A DNA stretch of 64,000 bases from Scyliorhinus canicula (lineage: Eukaryota). The notes under the pieces were generated by a model. That model saw nothing but the letters and a program-made list of their open reading frames with translations, searched no databases and was not told the origin of the DNA. The stretch covers positions 44,293,159 through 44,357,158 of the forward strand of contig NC_052158.1 in NCBI RefSeq assembly GCF_902713615.1, given 5' to 3'. The translations under genes and the position numbers were made by a program. This document shows, in pieces, positions 7,513 to 55,404 of this stretch (positions are counted from its first letter, which is position 1; every line of letters begins with the position of its first letter).

Positions 7513-8447
7513 TGTTGCTCGTTCTGGGTGAGTGTGCTTAACACTCGATTTGGCTCTGTTTTGTTACTTAGCTTTGGAGTCACCAGGTATCGTTAAGATA
7601 CCGCCACAAGTTTCAAGGTCAAGTTCAAAGCAATAAAACCATACACCAATTAGTAAGTTCAAACAAATGAGTTTATTATAATACAATTATAAACTACTCA
7701 TGCACACGCTAAGATGACTAAACTATTCCCACCACTAAATAGACCAATACTTATCTGAATAAGGACCTGCCGGAGCAGGGGACAAGGCCTCTTGCTCTGC
7801 ACTGGGTCCGCAGACTTCAGGTTGGTACGGGTTAAAAGGGGTCAGGAGTGTCTATCTCTGGTAGCAATCGTTGTGAGACACTTACTTGCTGGCAGCTGCT
7901 GTCCGAACCTCTCCTCTCTCTCGGTCAAGGTCTTCTTCGGTAAAGGCTGGTTGAGAGGGCTGGTCAAGAGAGGAGGGCTGGTCAAGAAGAACAAACTGAA
8001 TTTGGGACCTGTCTTTTATAGGTCCCAGGGCTTCGCGTCCTTTTTGGCAGACCCTCTATCTGCTGGGGATCGATTGGGTCTCTTCCCAATCGATTTGTTT
8101 GAATCCGTCCATTACTAAGGTTGTCCCTCAGCTACTGGGCGGGCCTTCAGGTGCTTTGTCTTCGAACCCCGCTGGTGCCGGGGTGTCTGGCTTCCCATAC
8201 AATGTTGCAATAACTTCCCTATTTGTGTCCTTTGTCCCTGGGATCGTTCCATTACTATGCTAACTGTCCCGGAGATTGCCTCATTAGTATGCGGAATGTT
8301 TGTTTCAGTGCTGTCTGCTCTCTTAGCAGACATAATACACAGTGGCTTGTTGCAGCCTGCTTGTGCTGCAAACTTTGTCCATTGTACCCTGCAAGCTTTG
8401 CGTTCCTCCATTTTGTATTAAGGGAATGGCCAACTTCAGTGGCTACA
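7513..8447 (-). repeat. 3' LTR (935 bp)
   Basis: Minus strand TGTAGCCAC...AACGAGCAACA (TG..CA); TATAAAA at 8014-8020 and AATAAA at 7672-7677; near-identical to 18584-19403. Confidence 0.93.
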
Positions 8448-8457
8448 CTTCCTCCTT
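8448..8457 (-). promoter_or_regulatory. Polypurine tract
   Basis: AAGGAGGAAG immediately precedes the 3' LTR on the minus strand. Confidence 0.75.
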
Positions 8458-8611
8458 GTGATCCTCATGAGAAATCATGAAGGATCACCCGAGTTCGGTG
8501 TCTTTGGGTTCCCTGACCTCAGCGAGTTCCATGGCCTCTGCACTTTCCTCAATTATGCCAAAAAACTTTATCTAACAATTTCTGATTGGCGCTATGTCAA
8601 AGGGGACATGC

Positions 8612-9684
8612 ATAAGAACATAAGAACATAAGAACATAAGAACTAGGAGCAGGAGTAGGCCATCTGGCCCCTCGAGCCTGCTCCGCCATTCAATTAGATC
8701 ATGGCTGATCTTTTGTGGACTCAGCTCCACTTTCCGGCCCGAACACCATAACCCTTAATCCCTTTATTCTTCAATAAACTATCTATCTTTACCTTAAAAA
8801 CATGTAATGAAGGAGCCTCAACTGCTTCACTGGGCAAGGAATTCCATAGATTCACAACCCTTTGGGTGAAGAAGTTCCTCCTAAACTCAGTCCTAAATCT
8901 ACTTCCCCTTATTTTGAGGCTATGTCCCCTAGTTCTGCTGTCACCCGCCAGTGGAAACAACCTGCCCGCATCTATCCTATCTATTCCCTTCATAATTTTA
9001 AATGTTTCTATAAGATCCCCCCTCATCCTTCTATATTCCAACGAGTACAGTCCCAGTCTACTCAACCTCTCCTCATAATCCAACCCCTTCAGCTCTGGGA
9101 TTAACCTAGTGAATCTCCTCTGCACACCCTCCAGCGCCAGTACGTCCTTTCTCAAGTAAGGAGACCAAAACTGAACACAATACTCCAGGTGTGGCCGCAC
9201 CAACACCTTATACAATTGCAACATAACCTCCCTAGTCTTAAACTCCATCCCTCTAGCAATGAAGGACAAAATTCCATTTGCCTTCTTAATCACCTGTTGC
9301 ACTTGTAAACCAACCTTCTGTGACTCATGCACTAGCACACCCAAGTCTCTCTGAACAGCGGCATGCTTTAATATTTTATCGTTTAAATAATAATCCCGTT
9401 TGCTGTTATTCCTACCAAAATGGATAACCTCACATTTGTCAACATTGTATTCCATCTGCCAGACCCGAGCCCATTCACTTAACCTATCCAAATCCCTCTG
9501 CAGACTTCCAGTATCCTCTGCACTTTTCGCTTTACCACTCATCTTAGTGTCATCTGCAAACTTGGACACATTGCCCTTGGTCCCCAACTCCAAATCATCA
9601 ATGTAAATTGTGAACAATTGTGGGCCCAACACGGATCCCTGAGGGACACCACTAGCTACTGATTGCCAACCAGAGAAACACCCT
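8612..9684 (-). mobile_element. Young 5'-truncated CR1 LINE nested in the provirus; RT C-terminal ORF uninterrupted
   Basis: ORF 8721-9725 with [31 protein letters not shown]; (aagaacat)n tail at 8612-8643. Confidence 0.93.
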
Positions 9685-9958
9685 GGCATTATCAATTGAA
9701 ATCGGGAACCTCTAACTATCCTCAATAAACTACTGTCATCTCATATTTAAACATTCTACAACATTCTAAACCCTTAATCATTCACACAGCAGCATCATTA
9801 CATTTCATTCTCTCTGACTCGGCAGTCGAGGGCAGAGGTACATAATTAATAGAAAGAATCTCTTTATTTTACAAAGGCATTGAGTATAAAAATAAATACT
9901 TGGTTACATTTCCAGGGGTTCGGGGGACTGGTGGAATCCAAAAATAGGGGATCTCACT

Positions 9959-10261
9959 CTATACACTGTTGAGGCACGAGAGCGGTAAAACTCTCCTTCT
10001 CCATTTCCTCATCCTGAGGGTTTGGACTATAATACAGATGATCGCCATTGCTAAAAGTGATTCTATAACGTACAACAAGGAGTACCATGTCAGAAATCTG
10101 GTACACCAGGTCGAGGTACTGTTACCATTGACTGGGCTGGGGGTGGTCTGGGTTTGGGAGAAGTTAGCAAACGTTGTACTGTGGGAAAGGGGGTTTGCGT
10201 CCACGCGCAACCACGCAGATGCCACAAAAGCTAAAAACATTGCAATTGGAGTGCTTTTCAT
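9959..10261 (-). CDS. Provirus accessory ORF: ~100-aa predicted type I membrane glycoprotein in the env position
   Basis: MKSTPIAMFLAFVASAWLRVDA signal-like N-terminus; S/T-rich ectodomain with NFS and NST sequons; WYSLLYVIESLLAMAIICIIV TM; RMRKWRRR basic stop-transfer; same strand as gag-pol. Confidence 0.6.
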   Translation of the reverse strand: MKSTPIAMFLAFVASAWLRVDANPLSHSTTFANFSQTQTTPSPVNGNSTSTWCTRFLTWYSLLYVIESLLAMAIICIIVQTLRMRKWRRRVLPLSCLNSV

Positions 10262-11186
10262 CTTCTCTCTCTCTTTTGTCCTCTCTTCCCTTCCTGGGAT
10301 CTTGCTGTGCTGTTGCTTCGGTTCCTCTATCGAACGTCCAAAAGCTATGGAATCAAGCATTTTATCTGTTAGTGTTCAGCTTAATATCTTGACTTTAAGT
10401 ATATCTGTCCTCTTGTTCCAAATTTCCCTTTATGATGGTCACCTCCATGTTACTCACTCATTTGTTTTTTCAAAAGCAGATTTAGGACCAGACATATACT
10501 TAACTACTAAACCAGTGCGAGCCGTCTCGCAGAGTGTTGCAATTTACCATCCCAAAATGTTCCTGGATGTAAATAGCATGAGGGGTGCAACCAAAGGGCT
10601 GCATTAAACAAAACCAGAGGAAAACAAACTTTTAGAAATAAGACAGTCGAAATGGGGTGCGAATGGGCCGCGACGGGAAAGATTTGGGTGGAATCCCTGG
10701 GTACGGCGTGCTGTGCTCTACCCGAGCTTAGCTGACCAAAGGGGTGGTCCTCAGACAGGGTGGGTCCTCAATGCCGTTTCTCCACTGCCTGAACGACCTG
10801 GAACGAACGGGCATGAACGTAATAATTGTTGAATTGCAGCCTCCATTCCCGGAATGGAGGGGTACCTAAAAAAAGGGGGAGCCAAGATGCTCCTAGTGGG
10901 ATGAAGAGCCTTAAGTTGGGCTCCAGATATTGCAGTTGAGTCAAGTTCTCAGAAATGTCGGCGGACAAACTAACGTGCATGTGAGGTGGTCACAAGCTTT
11001 TTGGCTGAAAAGCGAGTGGCCAATCTCCATGTCAAACACTTAACATACAAACAAACGTCTAAACATGCGTACAGGTTCCATCAGAAAGGACACCGTTTAT
11101 CTCTCAAGCGGTTCCTCTTTTTACATCATCTGGACACCTCACTTCTCTACATTCTCTGCGAACAGGGTCGCAAAGGGGTTGCCGTG

Positions 11187-12790
11187 TCAGGAGTCAGACT
11201 CAGAGTCATCCTCTTCTCCTGGATCCCATACCCTTGTATGGATCAGGCAAGAAATTTTAGCATTGTGTGACCGGGGGTCACTCTCGTCATTGCGGATAAG
11301 TCTCCATGAATTGTCCCTGTGCCAAATCGTGGGGTCTAACTGTGAATGAACGTTGTCGGGGTCATCATAGTTGGGCGGTGGGTTTGGGTGTGGGTCTGGA
11401 GTTTTTAGGTAAGTGATCTCCATGGGGTCAGTGGAGTCGGGGTCGAAGTCGCTGAAGTGGGGGCTGTAGGGTGGCGTGCTGTGGCTGTCCTCAGTCTCAC
11501 AGTCACTGTCACTGTCTCTGCTGTGGTAGCTTGTGGGCGTTTCGGGGCGTGGTCTGGAGTCAATGGGCGGAGTCGAGGTCGAGTCCGATGAGGAACTGGT
11601 CTGTGAGGGGGAGGGTGGAAATGTGTCTCGTGTGGGCGGGGTGAGGTGTTCTGCTGCGTCTAGCAGGACATGGTGGGAGTGGTTTGACTGTGTTCCATAA
11701 GCCTTTAACTGGTTAATATGGAACCACGCAGTCTTACCGTTGGGGTACTTTATCCGATATACTGACGGGCTGATTTTGTCCGAAATTGAGTACGGGCCGG
11801 AAAAGTTTGAGGCCAAAAACGTGCTGGGGTTATACACAGATAACATAACCTGTTGCCCAACCTGAAACTCTCTGGTATGGACATTTTTGTTGAAACAGGC
11901 CTTGCTCTGTTTCCGCCTTTTAACCTTTCATAGGGCGTCGGTCATGAGTGTGTGTGGGGTGACACCTGTTGATGCTGAAACAGTGTTTCGTATAAACATA
12001 AGTGCGAATGGGAGCACTGAATCCCAAGTTAAATTGTTCTCCTGTACCATCTTTCTAAGGGTCGATTTTAGAGTCCGATTCATGCGTTCCACTATCCCGC
12101 TTGACTGGGGGTGGTACGCAATGTGTAAATTTTGTTTGATTCCGATTATGGTCAGGACGTTCTTCATGACCGTCCTGTAAAATGAGATCCCTGATCTGAT
12201 TCTATACTTTTGGGGAGTCCCCATCTAGTAAAAATGTGGTGGGTCAGGATCTTTGCGGCTGTCTTTGCAGTGTTTGTATGAGATTGGAATGCCTCTACCC
12301 ATTTCGTAAACGTGCCTATGACCACCAGAACATATTTATAGCCATTCCTGCAAGGGGGCAATGGACCTATAAAATCGATCTCGAGGTTAGTCCAGGGACC
12401 ATTAACGGGGCGAGTGTGGCTGAGTTGTGCCTTCTTAGAATACCTTTCTGGGTTATTCTGTGCACAAATTAAACAGTTCTCGATGTAGTGTGTTAAATTG
12501 TCTCTTAAATTGGGCCACCAACAGAGTTGTCTAAGGTGGGCTGTGGTAGGGTCGATCCCTTGGTGTCCATGACCATCATGCAATAAGGCAATCATTTGAT
12601 TCCTGTCTTTCTCAGGAACCACATACAACTGGTCTTTTATAATCACACCCTCATGTGTGGTCAAATCGTGTTTGAATTTGTCGTACTGGGCCACAAACTT
12701 TCCTTTTAAAATCTCCCGGAGATTTTCGTCCTGCTTCTGTGCCTGTACTAAATCCTCTACGTCTGCCTGTGAGACCTGAACTGAACTCAC
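11187..12790 (-). pseudogene. Retroviral integrase (frameshifted) with long S/D/P-rich C-terminal tail
   Basis: HDGHGH...CLIC zinc motif; IDFIGP, SDQGSHF and GIVERMN catalytic triad; GPY motif; split across ORFs 12164-12790, 11928-12224 and 11187-11846. Confidence 0.92.
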
Positions 12791-12835
12791 AGGGGCTCTA
12801 GCTGGTGCGCTAGCTGGGGGTGTCCAAAAATGACC

Positions 12836-13275
12836 TCACCTGGAACCTGCTTTAGCCAGTGCGTCGGCTTTCACATTACCAGGGGGGGATGATCGATGGT
12901 GGCTTCTAACCTTCATAATGCCATACGTCTTGTCCTTTGCCTTCTCTACGATATGGTGGAGTAATGGGGCTGATGGAAGGGGCTTGCCGTCCGCGGAGAC
13001 AAAACCTCTTCTTCTCCACAGGGGTAGAAAATCTGTGAGGCTGTTACAGACATATACACTGTCCGAATATATATCTGCTTGGCTGGAGAACGAATCTGGG
13101 TGGTTCACTATGTATGCAATGGCCGTGAGCTCTGCTGCCTGCGAGCCTAAGTGACCGGGTAACTTTAGTGCTATCTCCTCTAGTGCATGTCCCTGCACAT
13201 CTTCCACATAAATACCGCACCCTGTAATGCGTTCGTCATCTAAAACTGTGGATGAACCGTCCACATAAATCCGTA
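12836..13275 (-). pseudogene. Second (retroviral-type) RNase H
   Basis: YVDGS, SQAAEL, YSDS, KVRSH and GNVKADALA: all catalytic residues present. Confidence 0.92.
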
Positions 13276-13340
13276 GGGGTGCACACGTGCCCGTGGGCTG
13301 GGGGCTCTGGCTTGAATTCCCTATCTTCCTGGGGGGTGTC

Positions 13341-14680
13341 TTAGCAATGAAGGGTCCTGTGTTGTGTAGGGGTGGCTACTATTTCGCATTCATGGGGTAG
13401 TCCTGGATACTGTAGGTTGTCTGCTAAAAATGTGTGTGTCTTGGTCCGTTTAACTGTTACGTCCCGTCCCTGTAACAGAAGTGTCCATCTAGCTGCTCTT
13501 ATCTGGCTCACTGAACCATCCTTCAGTCGTCCGTCTAAAAGTAACTGTGTGGGCGTGTTTTCGGTCAAAATGGTGATGGGGTTGAGTCCGATAATGTAGG
13601 AAAAATATTGTACTGCCCAGAATACCGCGAGCAGATGTCTTTCGCAGGCTGAGAAACCTTGCTCCACGGGGTCTAATAGTTGTGAGGCATAAGCCACTTG
13701 TCGTAGCTGCTCGTGCCATTCCTGAAGGAGCACGGCCGAGAGGGTCAGATCTGTGCTAGCTACCTCAATTGCATAGGGGGAGAGTTGGTCTGGAACTTGT
13801 AGCGCGGGTGCTGCGCTAAGGGCTTTCTTTAACTCTTCCCCAGCCTCTGTATGCTGCGGAAGACATTCCCAAGGTGCTCCTTTCTTAAGGAGGTCTGAAA
13901 GTGGGGCTGCCTTGGTCGCAAAACCATCGATATGGTTCCGACAATACCCAACCAGTCCTAAAAATGACCGGAGTGCTGAAACATTTTGGGAAAGGGGCAA
14001 TTTGACGATCGAGTCAATTCTTTTGAACTCGATCTCGCGTTTGCCGTGTGTGATGACTGTACCCAATTACATCACTTGATTATCCAATATTTGGGCCTTT
14101 CTGGGGTTAACCTTACATCCGATTGAGTTCAGAAGTTCCAGGAGTTCAGACAGAAGCGTGATGTGCTCTGCCTTGGTGTCTGTCTGCAGCAATAGGTCGT
14201 CCACATACTGTACCAAACATTCAGGTCGGGAAAATTTTGCTAGTCCATTTGCCAGCTGTCGGTGGAAAATGGAGGGGGAATTGTGGAATCCTTGTAGGAG
14301 GCATGTCCACGTGTACTGCTGTCCTTTGAATGTGAAGGCAAATTTGTACTGGCACGCCTTTGCCAATGGGATTGACCAAAAAACCGTTGCTAATGTCCAA
14401 TACCGTGAAATATTTGGAGTGGAGTCCCTGCTTGAGCATGGTCTCGGGACTTCTTGCTACCGTGGGGGCTACTGCTGGGGTTACTTTGTTGAGTTCCCGA
14501 TAATCAATGGTCAGACGCCATGATCCGTCGGGCTTCCTCACTGGCCAAATAGGGGCATTATTAGTCGAGGCTACTGTCCTAAGTACACCCTGCTCTAATA
14601 AGGTCTCTATAACTTTTCCAATTTCTCCCTCTGCTTCGAGGGGAAATCGGTATTGTCTCTGTGGTCTCGGGTTAGGTGAC
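13341..14680 (-). pseudogene. Reverse transcriptase plus degenerate RNase H tether
   Basis: PRPQRQY, KPDGSWRLTIDYRELN, LDISNGF, QGFHNSPSIF, YVDDLL, LRSFLGLVGY; the tether has EVAS and TEN instead of TDAS and TDH. Confidence 0.92.
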
Positions 14681-14720
14681 TGGCAAATGCTGTCCTGTGC
14701 TTATTCAAAAATAACCTTAT

Positions 14721-15227
14721 TCAAAATGCCCTAACCTGTTTGGCCGTGCTAAGTGTGGTCGGGTCAAAACAATAGTCGCCTACTGCGCTTATCCTGTTCG
14801 CATACTCTCCTACTGTGAGCGTTGCGGGTGCTCTGTCTGATTTTGCCATTCGCCAGACACACTGATTTACTGGATCGAACGACAGGCTGTGGGCATTCAT
14901 AAAGTCAATGCCCAATATGTGTTCTGCTGTGCGGGACAGATTAACTAAAACAACGGGGTGTCTGGTGGAGATGTTCCCTCGCCGGATTGATACAGGGGTT
15001 GTAATGTGTCCCTGCTGTGAGTGACCTGTAAAGCCGCTGAGGGTTATTGAAGCTGTAGTGGGCCACGTGTCTGCCTGTGGTGTGGTGGAGGAATTAATGG
15101 TTGTGCGGGATCCTCCTGTGTCCCAAAGTAATTCTATGGGCTCTCCCCGAATTTTCGCCGTGACCACCGGTCTTCCGGATTGGTCCCAAAGGGTGTCACA
15201 GACCCAAGTGGGGGAGCCCGAACACCG
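14721..15227 (-). pseudogene. Retroviral aspartic protease
   Basis: LWDTGG active site and ILGIDF motif; in frame with the gag end across one TGA. Confidence 0.88.
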
Positions 15228-16878
15228 TCAGTCCGTTCCATCCACATTGGTCTGTCCTGACTGCATCCCTATACTGTGGCTAGGCTTTGCTTTGTTCCTG
15301 GTCAGAGTGCCTGTCTGCTGGCCTCTCTGAGATTTCTGCCGGGCATTGCATTTCCGAGCAAAATGCCCTAACTGTCCGCAGTTATAACATTCTTGTGATT
15401 TCGGTGGGGGGGTTGTCCTTTCCCTCATTTACCCATGCGGGGTTTTGGTGTGCTCTGACTGCCTGAATATATGCTGCAGCCTGAGCTTCTTCGGGGTTCT
15501 GTACTTTTATCTTGCCTTGGACAGATTGCTCCCAAGCACGGGACAGTCTTTTCAATACCCAGTTTTCACTATGGGCTGCTTCTGAGGGGTCATAATTGCT
15601 GCAGACATTCTGACCTGCATCTGTGGCCTGGGAGATTATTGTGTGGGCCCATTTAACCATATTTCTGCCTACACTTATTTAGGCCTTCGACTGGGTCTCC
15701 TCTGTTGTACCCTATCGCGTCTAAAATAGTTGTATGCATCTCTTCGAGGGTGCCTCTTCCAACGTTCTGTGGGTCGGGGAGGGTTGCTACTACCGATGAG
15801 TCTAAACTCAAAACTGTGAGCTTCACCTGCTCTTGCTCATCAAGGCCGTACATGGTCGCCTGCTGTTTCACTCGTGCGAAGAATTGGTGGGGGTCTGCAG
15901 TGGGGAGGAACCGGGTGATTTTCTCACACATGTCCCTTAGTTGGGTTACAGTTAAGGGGGTCGTGTATGTGACCTCGGGTGCGCCTTCTGCGGTTGCTTT
16001 TCTTTGGGTGGTGACTGGGTTCATTTTTGCAGGTGCTATCTGATCTGTGGGGGGTTGGGGGGCTTTCCTTTTCTGCTGCGCTGCTAGCGCACATGTTCCC
16101 TGAACATATAGCTGCACTGTTTCACTTAATCCCTGCCAATCTGGGGCATTTTCTTCATCTAACTGTGTCCCAAATGTCTCTTGGAACCCATTCTGTACAG
16201 AAAGCAGAGATTGCAGCTGCGCAATCTGCTTCCTACATTTCGCATGATCCACTGTACTTTGCCTTTGCTCAGTGGTGGCAGCATGGAGTGCCTTTAAAGC
16301 TGCCTTTCAGTCGCTACACTGCTTCTTCAGTGTCTCTACCTGCTTTTCTGCTTCTTCTTTTACCAAGACTGCACGCTGCACATCTTGATAGGCCTTTTCA
16401 TATTGAACTTGGGAACTGCTCAGATGGGCTAGACAAGACTGATGTGCCCTCTTGGAATCATCCACTTCTCTATCCTTATCTACCAGTCGTTGCCTTAAAC
16501 CTAGATTCTCCTTTTCGATGTCCCTGACATCCACTTTGCTCATTCTGTTCTTCTCCTCTAACTCTGCTCGGAGCTTCCTGACAACCTCCTCTGTGCCTCG
16601 CAATTGTGCCAAGCAGGACACAATTGCCATCGGCTTACGTGCTTTACCTATACTTTTCTTATGAATTTGAGATAGGTTCTCCCACCAAGTATGTCCTATA
16701 CACCCGGGACTTGTCTCCTCATTCACACGAAACTCATCCAAAGGGGCCATCCTTTCTCTTTGAGGTACTTCCTGAGTTCCAGCTCCCACACGGGACACTG
16801 GCCTACTCTGCTGCTATTGGTCGCTGCGACAATGAACTGCTCTGGGTTCATGAGGTGTTCCATTGCCTGCATGGCCAT
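15228..16878 (-). pseudogene. gag (frameshifted, probable internal deletion) with N-terminal coiled coil and single CCHC knuckle
   Basis: ATG at 16878 ([15 protein letters not shown]...); heptad-like EEVVRKLRAELEEK...VETLKKQ; CYNCGQLGHFARKC. Confidence 0.85.
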
Positions 16879-16885
16879 CTCTTTT

Positions 16886-18279
16886 TCTCCTAGCTGGTAA
16901 CTATAGGCCGGTGAGCCTCACGTCTGTTGTGGGTAAAGTCTTGGAGAGGATTATAAGAGATACGATTTATAATCATCTAGATAGGAATAATATGATCAGG
17001 TATAGTCAGCATGGTTTTGTGAAGGGGAGGTCATGCCTCACAAACCTTATCGAGTTCTTTGAGAAGGTGACTGAACAGGTAGACGAGGGTAGAGCAGTTG
17101 ATGTGGTGTATATGGATTTCAGTAAAGCGTTTGATAAGGTTCCCCACGGTCGTCTATTGCAGAAAATACGGAGGCTGGGGATTGAGGGTGATTTAGAGAT
17201 GTGGATCAGAAATTGGCTAGTTGAAAGAAGACAGAGGGTGGTGGTTGATGGCAAATGTTCAGAATGGTGTTCAGTTACGAGTGGCGTACCACAAGGATCT
17301 GTTCTGGGGCCGTTGCTGTTTGTCATTTTTATAAATGACCTAGAGGAGGGCACAGAAGGTTGGGTGAGTAAATTTGCAGACGACACTAAAGACGGTGGAG
17401 TTGTAGACAGTGTGGAAGAATGTTGCAGGTTACAGAGGGACATAGATAAGCTGCAGAGCTGGGCTGAGGTGGCAAATTGAGTTTAATGTAGAGAAGTGTG
17501 AGGTGATTCACTTTGGAAAGAATAACAGAAATGCGGAATATTTGGCTAATGGTAAAATTCTTAGCAGTGTGGATGAGCAGAGGGATCTCGGTGTCCATGT
17601 ACATAGATCCCTGAAAGTTGCCACCCAGGTTGATAGGGTTGTGAAGAAGGCCTACGGTGTGTTGGCCTTTATTGGTAGAGGGATTGAGTTCCGGAGCCAT
17701 GAGGTCATGTTGCAGCTGTACAAAACTCTGGTACGGCCGCATTTGGAGTATTGCGTACAGTTCTGGTCGCCTCATTATAGGAAGGACGTGGAAGCTTTGG
17801 AACGGGTGCAGAGGGGATTAACCAGGATGTTGCCTGGTATGGAGGGAAAATCTTATGAGGAAAGGCTGATGGACTTGAGGTTGTTTTCGTTAGAGAGAAG
17901 AAGGTTAAGAGGTGACTTAATAGAGGCATACAAAATGATCAGAGGGTTAGATAGGGTGGACAGTGAGAGCCTTCTCCCGCGGATGGAGGTGGCTAGCATG
18001 AGGGGATATAGCCTTAAATTGAGGGGTAATAGATATAGGACAGACGTCAGAGGTAGGTTTTTTACGCAAAGAGTGGTGAGGCCGTGGAATGCCCTACCTG
18101 CAACAGTAGTGAACTCGCCAACATTGAGGGCATTTAAAAGTTTATTTGATAAGCATATGGATGATAATGGAATAGTGTAGGTTAGATGGCCTTTAGTTTT
18201 TGACTTCCCATGTCGGTGCAACATCATGGGCCAAAGGGCCAGTACTGCGCTGTATCATTCTATGTTCTATGTTCTATGC
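16886..18279 (+). mobile_element. Young CR1 LINE inserted just upstream of the gag ATG
   Basis: [33 protein letters not shown]; (ttctatg)n tail; tctctttt duplicated on both sides. Confidence 0.93.
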
Positions 18280-18560
18280 TCTCTTTTAATTTGGAACGAG
18301 GGATATTAAGGCAATGCTTATAAAATACGGGTACGGCTTTCGCTATGTTCCGAATTATAAAACTCCTGACAGTTTGTCGCCACAATAATCTCTCGGTTTT
18401 ACCTTACAACCCTGTTAGTTACGCATGCAAAAAACACACTTCCGAATTAGGAGTATTGATTTGAACTACTTGAACACTCGTGGTTTTTCCTTTACCCAAT
18501 TGGATTTCAGATTCAAATTTCTGGGTTCTCTCGGGAGTGGGGGGGCCACTTCTAATCGAG

Positions 18561-18578
18561 TCCCGTCGGATGTTGCCA
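18561..18578 (-). promoter_or_regulatory. Primer binding site
   Basis: TGGCAACATCCGACGGGA begins 5 nt inside the 5' LTR; the complement extends into a T-loop-like TCGAGTCCC. Confidence 0.75.
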
Positions 18579-18583
18579 CTAAA

Positions 18584-19403
18584 TGTTGCTCGTTTTGGGT
18601 GAGTGTGCTTAACACTCGATTTGGCTCTGTTTTGTTGCTTAGCTTTGGAGTCGCCAGGTATCGTTAAGATACAGCCACAAGTTTCAAGGTCAAGTTCAAA
18701 GCAATAAAACCATACACCAATTAGTAAGTTCAAACAAATGAGTTTATTATAATACAATTATAAACTACTCATGCACACGCTAAGATGACTAAACTATTCC
18801 TACCACTAAATAGACCAATACTTACCTGAATAAGGAACTGCCGGATCAGGGGACAATAGCCTCTTGCTCTGCACTGGGTGCGCAGACTTCAGGTTGGTAC
18901 GGGTTAAAAAGGGGTCAGGAGTGTCTATCTCTGGTAGCGATCGTTGTGAGACACTTACTTGCTGGCAGCTGCTGTCCGAACCTCCCCTCTCTCTCGGTCA
19001 AGGTCTTCTTCGGTAAAGGCTGGTCGAGAGGGCTGGTCAAGAGAGGAGGGCTGGTCAAGAAGAACAAACCGAGTTTGGGACCTGTCTTTTATAGGTCCCA
19101 GGGCTTTGCACCCTTTTGGGCCGATCCTCTATCTGCAGGGGATCGATTGGGTCTGTTCCCAATCGATTTGTTTGAATCTCCCCAATACTGAGGCTGTCCC
19201 GCAGCTACTGGGCGGGCCTTCAGGTGCTTTGTCTTCGAACCCCGCTGGTACCGGGGTGTCTGGCTTCCCATACAATGTTGCAATCACTTCCCTATTTGTG
19301 TCCTTTGTCCCTGGGATCGTTCCATTACTATGCTGACTGTCCTGGAGATTGCCTCATTAGTATGCGGAATGTTCGTTCCGGTGCTGTCTGCTCTCTTAGC
19401 AGA
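18584..19403 (-). repeat. 5' LTR, outer ~117 bp deleted
   Basis: Colinear with 7513-8330 with a few percent mismatches; lacks the TGTAGCCAC terminus. Confidence 0.9.
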
Positions 19404-46991: not shown

Positions 46992-47462
46992 CAATACTCG
47001 TTTCTGTCTGAATGTTCAGGCCTGCCTGAGTACCGCTGGACAGTACTATCCTTGAGATGAAATAGGCACCCACTGGAGGCGGTTCAACCCTACACTACCA
47101 GCAGTGTGGCATTCCCCTGTTATTGCAATGGGACCAGCTCAGCACTGAGGCAGGGAGGCTGCGAATGTTGCACTCACCTCGTTGACGACAAAGCGCTGCG
47201 CGCTATCTTTTTCACACATGATTTCCTGCTGGCATGAGACACGATCATGCTGAGCAACAGATTTAATGAGCATTCCTGAGATGTTAATGAATACAAATGT
47301 TCACACCTCCAGCCAATGGGATACCCAACCCACTATTAACCCACCACCGGGAGAATTGCAAACTGTTTTCAAGCTGGCGGGGTTCCAATATGTTGACTCC
47401 ACTGGATTCTCCAATCTCGCCTGTCGTAAAACCCGATGTGAACATCATGGGAAAATTACACC

Positions 47463-48352
47463 CACAGTCACCCCAATCAGAGTTAATCTGCAAGTCACAG
47501 TCATTTCCCCAGTCACAGAGTCAGTCGCCGAGTCACAGTCACTCCCCCAGTCACAGAGTCAATCTCCGAGTCACAGTCACTCTCCCAGTCACAGAGTCAA
47601 TCTCCGAGTCACAGTCACCATTCACTCCCCCAGTCACAGAGTCAGTCTCCGAGTCACAGTCACTCTCCCAGTCACAGAGTCAATCTCCGAGTCACAGTCA
47701 CCATTCACTCCCCCAGTCACAGAGTCAATCTCCGAGTCACAGTCACTCCCCCAGTCACAGAGTCAATCTCCGAGTCACAGTCACTCTCCCAGTCACAGAG
47801 TCAATCTCCGAGTCACAGTCACCATTCACTCCCCCAGTCACAGAGTCAATCTCCGAGTCACAGTCACCCCCCCCAGTCACAGTCAGTCTCCGAGTCACAG
47901 TCACGCCCCCCAGTCACAGTCAGTCTTCGAGTCACAGTCACTCTCCAGTCAGTCAGTCTCCGAGTCACAGTCACTCCCCCAGTCACAGTCATTCCCAAGT
48001 CACAGTCACCCCCCAGTCACAGTTAGTCTCCCAGTCACAGTCACGCCCCAGTCACAGTCAGTCTCCGAGTCACAGTCACTGCCCCAGTCACAGTCAGTCT
48101 CCGAGTCACAGTCACTCTCCAGTCAGTCAGTCTCAGAGTCACAGTCACTCCCCCAGTCACAGTCAGTCTCCGAGTCACAGTCACTCGCCCAGTCACAGTC
48201 AGTCTCCGAGTCACAGGCACTCCACCAGTCACAGTCAGTCTCCAAGTCACAGTCACTCCCCCAGTCACAGAGTCAGTCTCCGAGTCACAGTCACTCCCCC
48301 AGTCACAGAGTCAATCTCCGAGTCACAGTCACAGAGTCAATCTCTGAGTCAC
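47463..48352. repeat. (CAGTCA)-based minisatellite with ~36-46-bp higher-order units
   Basis: cagtcacagagtcaatctccgagtcacagtcactcccc repeated about 20 times with variants. Confidence 0.95.
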
Positions 48353-49589
48353 TCCTATAGTTATTCTGAGATAGGCCATGTCCTTTGCCCTCTCTCCTGT
48401 GCCCATCAGGCAGTTCTGGCAGGTTCCCTTCCCTGAAGGACAATATTTGGGGTTTTCGGACAACCTTAGTGTTTTCATATTTTATTTTAATTCTATTGAG
48501 CAAATTTAATTATTTTTATTTTCAGGAAGTATTCACGTGAGTATTTGAGGTGAATAACATGGATGTCTTTAAGAGTAAACAAGATGAGCTCATGAGGGAG
48601 AAAGGAACAGAAGGATATGCTGATAGGGTGAGTGGAGACTTGACTGAAGCATCAACACCAGCAGGGAACAATCGGGCCGAATGGTCTGTTTCTGCTCTGT
48701 AATTCTATATAGATAACCTTCCCTGGTTGGATTTAAACTCAGCACCAGAGCAATTCAACTCCATGGAGACACATTTATTGAAATGCATTTTTGAGCCTCG
48801 TTGAGCCTCGTTTCTCTTTCTCTTTCAGCCTCTCGTTTCTCTTTCAGCCTTTTCAATTTTGCCATATTTCATATTTCAATTTTTTTCTGAAGCTCACTCC
48901 AGACAACTGGCCAGACCTTTGATCCTGACTGTCACTGGGCTGATTTAATTGGTTTTTAATTACTTCTTCCAGTTGATGCCATCTAGTTCAAAAGCAATGT
49001 ATCTCCCAAAAAGAACAACGGTTTCTTTGCCAGGTTTAATCTGATTTTGAACTTTTCATTGGGACTGGAGACCTCAGTGTCTCAGTGTTCCCGTCTCAGT
49101 GGGTTTTCATGCAATGTCCTCACACTTTAACTGAAAATGGCTCACATTTGTAAAATTGGGAGTTTAAAACTTGCATTACTCAAAATTAATGAATCTGTTT
49201 GATTATTATATGGAGAAATTAAAAATACATCAATCAAAAATCAATGATTAATTCTGTTGTTGATAACATAACTTATCGATTATATAATTCAATCAAAGCC
49301 TTGAATTAATATGGAACAAGAGAGTTCAATGGGATTTATCAAACATCCCCCTTTTGTTTACAAGTTACTCCACATAAATAATCTATAAACAAAATGATCA
49401 CACTTAAACAAAAAATCTGTCCATTTTAGTCTGTTACAACTTTGTCTGTCCCTACACACATTCATCTTTGGTGTTCAGGTCTTCACTTCCAAATGATATC
49501 TCTGCAAGTGAAGTAACGTCCTTTCCAAACACTTTGGAGCAGATAGAAGTGGTTTGAAAAAGTTGCTTGAAGTGGTTTGTGGTCAGGTT

Positions 49590-50390
49590 CTGCCATCACT
49601 TTCTCTCTCCCAAACAGGTTTGATGACCAGACGAATGATTTATCACAGACCTCACACGTGAACATCCTTTCCTGAGCGAGTGCGTTGATGTACATTTAGG
49701 CTCGATAATGGAGTAAAAGATTAATCACACACCTTACATGTTAATGGTTTCTCCCTGGTGTGAATGCGTTGGCATACACAGAGGGTCGATGACTGTGAAT
49801 GATTTGTCACAGATATCGCAGCTGAACAGTCTCTCTCCTATGTGAGTGCATTGGTGGACGCGGGGGTCCGATGATGGCAATCATGATTTGTTGCACACTT
49901 CACACATGAATGCTTTCTCGCCTGTGTGAATCCTCTGGTTTCTCAGGAGCTTGGAGGAATTGGTGAAAGCTACCTCACACCCAAAGGGTGTGTTAGGAGG
50001 CCTGATGATTTCACAAAAGCGTTATCGCAAACTTCGCACATGAATCGTTTTGCTTCCATTGTGCTGCCCTTGCCTTAACAGAGGTTATTACAGGTGCATC
50101 TTGTGCTTTAGAAGATCCTATGAGCCTGTGGAGTGCTCCTCACACTAGAACTGCCTCTGTAGGATTGAGTCAGTGGTTCATGAAACTCATGCAATAATTG
50201 AAGCTCTCACCCCACTTCGAGCGACTGACACTTCTTCCCAGTCTCACCCTGACCGCTCGCACACAGCCGAGCCTTTGGAAAGGTTGGTTCTGATAGAAGG
50301 TTCTACAACACTGACCAGTTTCTGATGCTATGTAAAGCCTCCCTGACCCGGCCGATTTCCAGCACATCAAACAGATAAAGAATAACAAAG
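49590..50390 (-). pseudogene. C2H2 zinc-finger pseudogene, paralog of 54442-55690
   Basis: Broken fingers (FTCEVCDKSF, HTGEKAF) and the same leader (gaaactggtcagtg...gagagcttcaat) as the other ZF copies. Confidence 0.8.
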
Positions 50391-54215: not shown

Positions 54216-54441
54216 AGATGTTGGTGTTTGGAGAGAGAGGAGCAGGTGAAACAATCCTGACACATGTCGCACTGCAACAGTTGTCTCTCGTGTGGGTTCA
54301 CTAATGTTCCAGGAAGTCCAACTGTGGGAAGATTTTATTACAGAACTCACATTGATAGGGTTTCTCCCATATGAATCTTCTGGTGTCACACGAGGGTCGG
54401 AGACATGGTGAAAGCTTTTGACAAACTTCACACCTGTAGGG

Positions 54442-55404
54442 TCACTCCCCAGTGTGGATCCTCTGATGGAGCAGGAGGTACGATGACCTTGAGAATGATT
54501 TGTTGCACACCTCACACTTGAATGGTTTCTCTCCAGTGTGAATGCGTTGGTGTACGCAGAGATTCGAAGAGCACGAGAAAGATTTGCCACACACCTCGCA
54601 TGTGAACAGCTTCTCCCCTGTGTGAATCTGTTGGTGCAGTCGGAGGGTTGACGAACACGAGAAAGATTTGTCACACACCTCGCAGGCAAATGGTTTCTCA
54701 CCTGTGTGAATGCGTTGATGTACGTGAAGGTTTGTTAATTGTGAGAATGATTTGTCACACAAGGCACACGTGAAGGGTTTCTCCCCTGTGTGAATGCGTT
54801 GGTGTAGACGGAGGGTCGATGACTGTGAGAATGATTTCTCACATATCTTGCATGTGAACGGTCGCTCCCCTGTGTGAACCCGTTGGTGTAGACGGAGATC
54901 TGATGACCAAAAGAATGATTTTCCACAGAACTCACATGTGAATGGTTTGTTCCCTGTGTGAAGGCGTTGGTGTACATGGAGATTTGATGACCTGGAAAAT
55001 GATTTCTTGCACACCTCACACTTGAATGGTTTCTCATCTGCATGAGTGCGTTGGTGTTTTAGGAGGTTCGATGACTGTGAGAACGATTTGTCACACACCT
55101 CGCATGTGAATGGTTTCTCCCCTGTGTGAATGCGTTGATGTACACGGAGGGACGATGATTGTGAGAATGATTTGTTGCAAACCTCACACATGAATGGTTT
55201 TTCCCCAGTGTGAACACGCCAGTGTGTCAGCAGGGCATATGATTCCGCAAATCCCTTGTTACACATTTCACATTTGAATGGCTTCTCTCCAGAGTGAAAG
55301 TGTTGATGTTTCACAATCATTGATGACCCTGCTTGATCATTCACCTCACACAAGAATGATTTATCTTCCATGTGGGTGTTTGTATGTTGCAACTGGGTCA
55401 ACAT
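54442..55404 (-). CDS. Tandem C2H2 zinc-finger protein (10 intact fingers, no effector domain seen)
   Basis: Repeated CxxC-x12-HxxxH with TGEKPF linkers; ends at TGE-TGA followed by decayed fingers; true start uncertain. Confidence 0.8.
   Translation of the reverse strand: MLTQLQHTNTHMEDKSFLCEVNDQAGSSMIVKHQHFHSGEKPFKCEMCNKGFAESYALLTHWRVHTGEKPFMCEVCNKSFSQSSSLRVHQRIHTGEKPFTCEVCDKSFSQSSNLLKHQRTHADEKPFKCEVCKKSFSRSSNLHVHQRLHTGNKPFTCEFCGKSFFWSSDLRLHQRVHTGERPFTCKICEKSFSQSSTLRLHQRIHTGEKPFTCALCDKSFSQLTNLHVHQRIHTGEKPFACEVCDKSFSCSSTLRLHQQIHTGEKLFTCEVCGKSFSCSSNLCVHQRIHTGEKPFKCEVCNKSFSRSSYLLLHQRIHTGE

Follow-up and report, generated by a model that had tools for sequence, protein, structure and literature searches.

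What stands in the env slot of a retrovirus-like element that has no env? The question is raised by an LTR element on the minus strand (7513-19403) of a stretch of 64,000 nucleotides from the catshark Scyliorhinus canicula (contig NC_052158.1), referred to here as the window. A preliminary description of this DNA had claimed that no env-sized ORF lies between integrase and the 3' LTR, and that the interval holds instead an ORF of about 100 codons with a leader, two sequons, one transmembrane (TM) segment, a Cys and an RMRKWRRR motif. Both observations hold for the window copy. The ORF is found at 9959-10261, with sequons at N33 and N47, and the pol stop and the polypurine tract lie ~1.6 kb apart once a CR1 insertion at 8614-9685 is removed, with no env-sized ORF between them. 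Here, we ask whether the small ORF is a gene of the family to which this copy belongs, what kind of protein it would encode, and what that protein might do.

The window copy and its family

The window copy has decayed; it belongs to an env-less ERV lineage probably related to snakehead retrovirus (SnRV). Its features are collected in Table 1. The two LTRs are 95.2% identical across 820 nt. At 15221-15230 a TGA closes gag and pol continues in the same frame, an arrangement that would suit stop-codon readthrough. The spacer contains conserved non-coding blocks at 10600-11138, possibly an RNA export, packaging or splice-control element; the spacer of a young copy has no Rfam match. Elsewhere in the window are an array with an 84-nt period, or 28 codons (54416-55387 and 49671-49949), which we take to be probably a C2H2 zinc-finger exon, and a minisatellite with units of 18 to 20 nt (47460-48421).

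Table 1. Features of the window copy, in the order of transcription; positions are those of the window
Feature	Position	Strand	Description or basis
5' LTR	18584..19403	-	5'-truncated; TATA box, donor-like GTAAGT at 18958, AATAAA; followed by PBS-like sequence
Second CR1-type LINE fragment	16893-18272		in the leader of the window copy
gag	15228..16878	-	no N-terminal Gly, long charged helical region, zinc knuckle; broken in window copy
pol	11139..15227	-	PR, RT, tether RNase H, second RNase H, IN, SH3-like end, acidic tail; broken in window copy
Spacer, non-coding	10375..11138	-	pol stop to proximal acceptor; conserved blocks, no codon periodicity
Distal acceptor-like site, AG 10600-10599	10598..10630	-	counterpart in other subfamilies
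Proximal splice acceptor, AG 10346-10345	10344..10374	-	branch-point-like heptamer 10368-10374; ATG-free purine-rich leader; conserved in subfamily alignment
Small ORF, window copy	9959..10261	-	100 aa; tail frameshifted after polybasic motif
Predicted signal peptide, aa 1-22	10196..10261	-	V-D-A cleavage-type end; hydropathy and motif
Stalk, 29 aa, S/T/P-rich	10109..10195	-	two sequons, the N-x-S at N33 invariant and the other variable
Membrane-proximal W-C-x-x-F-x-T-W-Y-S (invariant) and TM helix with invariant Glu	10016..10108	-	alignment; AF2 continuous helix 51-100
Juxtamembrane polybasic RMRKWRRR	9992..10015	-	5-7 K/R per 15 residues in 14/14 alleles
Family-form tail Y-x-h-x-S-P-I-F-G-F-H-Q-x-P-x-P	9904..9991	-	out of frame in window copy
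CR1-type LINE fragment	8614..9685	-	insertion in the 3' region of the window copy, lacking in sister copies; RT-like ORFs
3' LTR	7513..8447	-	TG...CA ends; preceded by polypurine tract

A DNA search of the genome returned 1656 first-look candidates, of which the best 40 were scored (93-100% identity), and a protein search returned 5398, of which the best 150 were scored; both totals count candidates, not copies. We fetched 66 long stretches, 40 picked by the small ORF and 26 by RT. The integrase end and the polypurine tract could both be located in 43, which we call scorable, the other 23 being truncated or off-motif for the script. None of the 43, which are drawn from the best-scoring candidates so that a rare env-bearing member is possible, has an ATG ORF of more than 220 aa after pol. 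The interval from pol to the polypurine tract is 1.0-2.3 kb in these copies, with one exception of 7.0 kb, and the core motif of the small ORF is visible in 39. Full-length copies with a normal env would have reduced the small ORF to a deletion remnant; there are none among the copies examined, nor any env with the same TM or tail.

The copies chosen by RT give the same picture. Those of older and intermediate subfamilies carry the small ORF in 16 of 20 cases (E < 1e-27), the other four being truncated or deleted there. The six young ones all have open gag and pol, five have the small ORF (113-118 aa), and none has env. The small ORF is present in the env slot of every subfamily sampled. In the young subfamily, many of the best 150 scored RT matches lie in a 1408-codon open pol frame, and the LTRs of five of the six fetched copies are 99.8-100% identical; the lineage was active very recently. 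Two pol-less copies, L031 and L042, share one structure: after the LTR comes a gag that extends further at its C terminus (in L031 with a second zinc knuckle), then the spacer and a small ORF that is open. They are a non-autonomous branch retaining the small gene.

The genome also contains env-bearing ERVs of other lineages, with env frames of up to ~570 codons and integrases that match P0024, P0036 or P0019, not the small-ORF family. Compared with a profile of the small ORF, 30 env loci of this genome gave no match (best E 5.6), and compared with the DNA of the family the same loci share nothing beyond short matches in small stretches of two copies.

Relationship to known retroviruses

A natural 1157-aa pol stretch contains PR, RT, a tether RNase H, a second RNase H and integrase (Pfam PF17917/PF17919, then PF00075). 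The dual RNase H (tether and second RNase H in Pol) matches a feature reported as the mark of retroviruses (PMC7947760). The nearest database RTs are frog and coelacanth "NYNRIN-like" and unnamed proteins (52-57% identity), and the closest named virus in the RT search is SnRV, at 49% identity (its Pol, P0013, was identified by eye against the SnRV RT in the supplement of PMC7947760). In an RT tree of 37 rows, which has no labelled foamy, ERV-L or Loki rows, the element lies within a 100/100 clade of 29 that includes SnRV Pol and leaves the Gypsy-like rows outside; its own position is an open fork. Judged from these comparisons, and in the context of published class III and SnRV placements (PMC6001957, PMC4422223), the element is probably an SnRV-related class III retrovirus.

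As described for SnRV, class III and "clade Huo" ERVs, SnRV shares the dual RNase H with the catshark family and, close to its 3' end, carries small accessory ORFs that are found on spliced RNAs, and ERVs clustering with SnRV are known from the elephant shark (PMC12193657, PMC6001957, PMC4422223). Unlike the catshark family, SnRV has a full env, and the passages on its 3'ORF in these sources describe a Cys-rich, Tat-like product and mention no TM accessory protein. ERV-L and similar class III ERVs without env resemble the catshark family in env loss and high copy number; for these, the relevant passages of PMC8278194 describe no replacement membrane gene, whereas every catshark subfamily sampled has one. 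A Lokiretrovirus identity, suggested by the helical N terminus of Gag and the "NYNRIN-like" matches, was rejected on RT motifs and on env. Motifs common to Loki RTs around the IDYR and PFG positions (PMC7947760 supplement) are, by eye, absent from the RT of the element, and no paramyxo-F-like env is found in the 43 scorable copies. A PF00523 search of the genome, in which no control gave a signal either, had no match. Loki elements are reported from 0 of 6 chondrichthyan genomes in the survey of PMC7947760.

The small ORF is under purifying selection

Conservation of the ORF among family copies, on which the preliminary description had made its reading depend, is borne out across subfamilies. 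In comparisons of five natural alleles, each from another subfamily, the C-terminal half, which begins at the invariant WC, has a dN/dS of 0.09-0.18 in all ten pairs (Fisher p <= 2.6e-5), and in most of these pairs its dS equals or exceeds that of pol between two of the alleles (dS 0.83, dN 0.058). The N-terminal half gives 0.22-1.02 for the same alleles. At the youngest split omega is 0.16, indicating that selection is still acting. Among 50 close copies it is 0.86 for private and 0.44 for shared changes, values biased against amino-acid changes by the choice of 20 of these copies by protein score.

Frame-shifted controls point the same way. Over the 91 non-independent pairs of 14 alleles, the median pN/pS of the WC-to-end half is 0.27 (0.21 for the membrane-proximal and TM segment, 0.33 for the cytoplasmic tail), compared with 1.0 and 2.5 in the shifted frames and 0.97 in the antisense frame. 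A chance open frame over conserved RNA signals could draw on the conservation of the adjoining non-coding spacer (median 67% identity), but it is refuted by identities of 0.77/0.91/0.59 at codon positions 1/2/3 and by variable columns that fall 29/10/52 of 63 by phase inside the small ORF and are flat outside. The spacer itself has no codon periodicity, and its indels are mostly frame-breaking (11 copies). Purifying selection is specific to the frame of the small ORF, which is therefore not open by chance; the ORF is a working gene of a replicating element.

Predicted architecture of the protein

The frameshifted tail of the window copy is not typical of the family. The longer tail that the preliminary description obtained by a 1-nt shift is in fact the family form: among the 30 closest copies, the frame runs on to the common stop in 21 (117-118 aa; three without the first ATG), the stop has been lost in one, and eight, including the window copy, are broken. 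Lengths in the family range over 113-120 aa, and the family form of the window protein has 118.

The leader and TM assignments are predictions from hydropathy and motif conservation. An [AV]x[AT] motif ends the leader at residues 18-22 in all 14 alleles, one leader being weakly hydrophobic. The ectodomain, put at ~35 aa in the preliminary description, comes to 29 aa when measured from the predicted cleavage site to the invariant WC. This stalk has 27-31 residues (29 in 11 of the 14 alleles), 41-59% of them S/T/P, with one invariant N-x-S sequon, and acts as a fixed-length spacer. Leader and stalk differ in sequence between alleles, while their arrangement is retained. In the alignment, the invariant columns are W-C-x-x-F-x-T-W-Y-S-x-S-Y, the TM Glu, the basic patch and a tail motif around Y100 and I-F-x-F. 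The best 19-residue hydropathy window of the window protein (2.5) starts at residue 61, and its cysteines lie at position 53 and in the cytoplasmic half of the TM; across the alleles, a single late-TM or TM-edge Cys is present in 11 of 14 and none in three. Gly2 is found in 0 of 14 alleles, and with it no myristoylation motif. The best amphipathic moments of 11-residue ectodomain segments are 0.29-0.45 in the 14 alleles, the higher values in the tail being due to Arg runs. An AF2 model (pLDDT 62) consists of a leader helix, a disordered stalk, a single helix over residues 51-100 and a disordered end. Together, these features predict a type I cell-surface glycoprotein with its N terminus outside and its C terminus inside.

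Expression and splicing

The preliminary description had placed the splice acceptor of the ORF at 10599. That AG exists and has a counterpart in other subfamilies, but the site that serves the small ORF is most likely 10345. Several ATGs in variable frames come after 10599, whereas none precedes the start codon of the small ORF after 10345; we prefer the proximal site because it is ATG-free and conserved, has a branch-point-like heptamer and is where a host gene model joins. Two other arrangements were rejected. One is a start at the upstream ATG 10360, which lies ahead of the proximal acceptor and differs in frame from copy to copy. The other is a second small ORF, or a long extension of the N terminus, past the distal acceptor; it is open in one subfamily only and shows no codon periodicity. 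A GTAAGT donor-like site is found 109-153 nt past the TATA box of the LTR in all six loci where the script located the box (eight were tried; one was a 3' LTR without it).

We aligned reads from four runs (one raw RNA run sampled at about 1 in 100, and three contig sets presumed to be RNA) to one young copy. The reads cover all 30 bins of the copy, and 53 have a poly(A) tail ~23 nt past the AATAAA of the LTR. The lineage is transcribed and polyadenylated. No joint from the LTR donor to either acceptor is listed in these four runs for this copy; spliced reads to ~10599, which the preliminary description had proposed as a check, did not appear, and reads run unspliced across that site. Another AATAAA, followed by U/GU-rich sequence, lies at or just past the stop of the small ORF in most subfamilies, ~500 nt before the LTR (9860-9905 in the window). 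No pile-up of 3' ends was seen there among the reads aligned to the young copy.

Eleven database gene models (P0098-P0102, P0106-P0111), from two catshark species only, place the small ORF behind unrelated host sequence that runs into its leader. The chimeras include HEPACAM2-like, PTGER3, SUGCT, CFAP36, B3GAT1-like and KIAA1958 isoforms, and the HEPACAM2-like isoform terminates with the viral TM and basic patch. In P0099, the one junction compared with DNA, the protein leaves its genomic locus exactly at the proximal AG; five other models appear to enter with residues encoded just past the proximal AG of older subfamilies. Such database gene models rest on RNA evidence. Host transcripts likely use the proximal acceptor, and the small ORF is possibly exonised into them, which, via a strong acceptor, could give host proteins a TM tail.

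Homologues and earlier descriptions

Homologues of the small protein come from the two catshark species only, and none lies within an Env. A search for a longer viral protein with the same TM or tail found none: every match, five among 1.84 billion representatives and eight among 8000 longer candidates, is a catshark gene model that is either host-chimeric or uncharacterised. No homologue was found by a single-sequence search of 5.8 billion proteins, in the ESM Atlas (all scores <0.9), among PDB sequences, in viral and metagenome contigs, or by Foldseek with the two-helix model of pLDDT 62 as the query. None of the 14 alleles matches an env family in Pfam; two weak echoes stay below the cut-off, adenovirus E3A with a best E of 0.031 in 6 of 14 alleles and TMEM156 with a best E of 0.0019 in all 14. 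In the literature covered, which included few subscription papers and did not extend to Repbase or Dfam, we found neither this family nor any vertebrate retrovirus described as having a small TM gene instead of env. Whatever its role, the protein represents a retroviral accessory protein family with no relative detected outside two catsharks; an env-less element with a small membrane protein is already known as a kind.

Discussion

Our results point to a selected accessory gene that may stand in for Env: its product would hold capsids at the plasma membrane and help them cross into a cell in contact. We rank this role first, if tentatively, because of the env slot, the presence of the ORF wherever the 3' region is intact, the constraint on its membrane and tail segments, and the precedent of sORF2 in Drosophila. 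The protein would be translated from a subgenomic RNA in which the LTR donor is joined to the acceptor at 10345, its signal peptide would be cleaved and its stalk glycosylated, and the polybasic motif would deliver it to the surface. There, the W/C/F/W/Y segment and the TM would be membrane-active, the conserved tail would bind Gag or a host cytoskeletal partner, and capsids would pass directly into the touching cell, most likely a germ cell. Gag has no N-terminal Gly and so may need another membrane anchor. With constraint on the membrane-proximal segment, TM, basic patch and tail, and a stalk that keeps no more than its length and one sequon, the pattern is rather that of a membrane-active module than of a folded domain for receptor binding.

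The small ORF holds the position of an Env, between pol and the 3' LTR and behind an acceptor; in place of a large SU/TM precursor with a fusion ectodomain, it encodes a 29-aa stalk. By size (60-210 aa), predicted topology and at least three K/R within 15 residues after the TM, the protein falls within the bounds used to recognise sORF2 and FAST proteins, the K/R count being that of the sORF2 screen (10.1101/2025.03.14.642691). The sORF2 of the Drosophila MDG1 group likewise belongs to an env-less element and is a short single-TM, N-out protein with a juxtamembrane polybasic motif under purifying selection (10.1101/2025.03.14.642691; PMC13486581). It is reported to co-localise with capsids in soma-to-oocyte protrusions (10.1101/2025.03.14.642691) and never to co-occur with Env (PMC13486581). 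Unlike the catshark ORF, sORF2 lies upstream of gag on unspliced RNA, has 63-107 aa, is usually myristoylated and belongs to insect Metaviridae (10.1101/2025.03.14.642691; PMC13486581). The catshark ORF is found in a retrovirus with dual RNase H, at the position of env; its product is predicted to have a signal peptide and a glycosylated stalk, and our searches detected no similarity of sequence to sORF2.

The preliminary description had likened the protein to reovirus FAST fusogens or Vpu-like accessory proteins. A real small membrane gene does occupy the env slot, while the likeness in function is one of analogy. The FAST proteins p10, p14 and p15 are similarly of 100-200 aa, with one TM, a small ectodomain, a TM-adjacent polybasic motif and a disordered tail end (PMC7830690, PMC3979892, PMC12945298). 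However, FAST proteins are reported to use a reverse signal anchor and no cleavable signal peptide (PMC3979892), and an acylated or cystine-noose fusion peptide (PMC7830690, PMC12945298), neither of which is seen in the catshark protein; p14 is described as non-glycosylated, in contrast to the predicted glycosylated stalk (PMC7830690, PMC3979892, PMC12945298). With a predicted signal peptide and no myristoylation or dicysteine motif, the catshark protein is therefore not a member of the FAST family.

A bolder version of the transfer role strikes us as doubtful: that a vertebrate retrovirus lineage dropped Env and spread through shark genomes until very recently with its own 115-residue signal-peptide mini-fusogen passing capsids between cells. 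This would be the first module for Env-independent infectivity in Retroviridae, and its architecture would be new among small fusogens. Against any transfer role, the exposed N terminus is predicted to be a hydrophilic glycosylated stalk and not a fusion peptide, the amphipathic moments of the ectodomain are modest, and the TM-edge Cys is single where present. Proliferation of env-less ERVs is reported to be easier when they have no entry protein at all (PMC8278194), so high copy number needs no fusogen. For sORF2 itself, fusion is reported as not reproduced in cell culture and its requirement as unproven (10.1101/2025.03.14.642691).

The protein might instead work within the membrane on a host receptor, its TM Glu pairing with a basic TM residue as in zeta/FcR-gamma and its ITAM-less tail silencing or rerouting the receptor, whether for immune evasion or as a growth signal favouring carrier cells. 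We regard this as somewhat unlikely. Glu67 is invariant inside the TM, which suggests an intramembrane partner, and small type I modulators of viruses and hosts are built in this way, with a signal peptide followed by a short glycosylated stalk; the sub-threshold echoes of E3A and TMEM156 lean the same way. Like CD3-zeta and FcR-gamma, the protein has a short ectodomain, a Cys near the membrane, an early-TM acidic residue and basic residues after it. The two zeta-family TM exons of the genome align with it gap-free in the same Y-h-h-acidic...basic register, and one beats 488 of 500 shuffles. This comparison was post hoc and began from recall, though, and its statistics are marginal, making it a lead only: 12 of 500 shuffles reach the score of the first exon, and the second is not significant (43 of 500; core only, 63 of 500). 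The zeta family PF11628 matches 0 of 14 alleles at E <= 10. An ITAM consists of two YxxL/I motifs, and the tail of the catshark protein has one invariant Tyr, not in that context. Further, an element that never leaves the germ line has no evident need of immune evasion.

Two other readings fare worse. An intracellular assembly or trafficking cofactor, tethering non-myristoylated Gag for retrotransposition in the same cell or causing superinfection interference, with no transfer between cells, would suit a Gag without Gly2, a tail whose conserved short hydrophobic motif is fit for partner binding, and the two pol-less copies that retain gag and an open small ORF; release of foamy virus is reported to need a specific Gag-Env contact (PMC3667135). 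However, the luminal sequon and the outer Cys are invariant and the stalk has a fixed length, all of which suggests action on the outer face, and a basic patch near the membrane is reported as a Golgi-export signal in p14 (PMC3979892), leaving such a cofactor improbable. We consider it very improbable that the ORF is an env remnant, in which an internal deletion fused the signal peptide to the TM and tail, with a residual role or slow decay. The env position behind an env-like acceptor, the ~1.6-kb pol-to-LTR interval, which is near env size, and the combination of signal peptide, aromatic membrane-proximal segment, TM and basic tail, as at both ends of an Env, speak for it. Yet the searches turned up no longer viral protein with this TM or tail, none of the 30 env loci taken from the genome resembles the family beyond the short matches given above, the spacer has no codon periodicity and mostly frame-breaking indels, and the selection tests exclude decay. 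A very old origin from env is still conceivable.

Env-less ERVs are taken as confined to the cell that expresses them and as needing only gag and pol; here, a third gene is kept. In a high-copy, recently active lineage, selection on this gene is nearly of core-gene strength, across subfamilies whose synonymous sites are near saturation. If the protein binds a host receptor, it would point to an unrecognised restriction or immune pathway in cartilaginous fish. If, as we tentatively favor, it serves capsid transfer, screens that require myristoylation, a limit stated by the authors of the sORF2 screen (10.1101/2025.03.14.642691), would miss such proteins. The sORF2 strategy of flies would then have arisen independently in true retroviruses, a route that would be new for the retroviruses of vertebrates.
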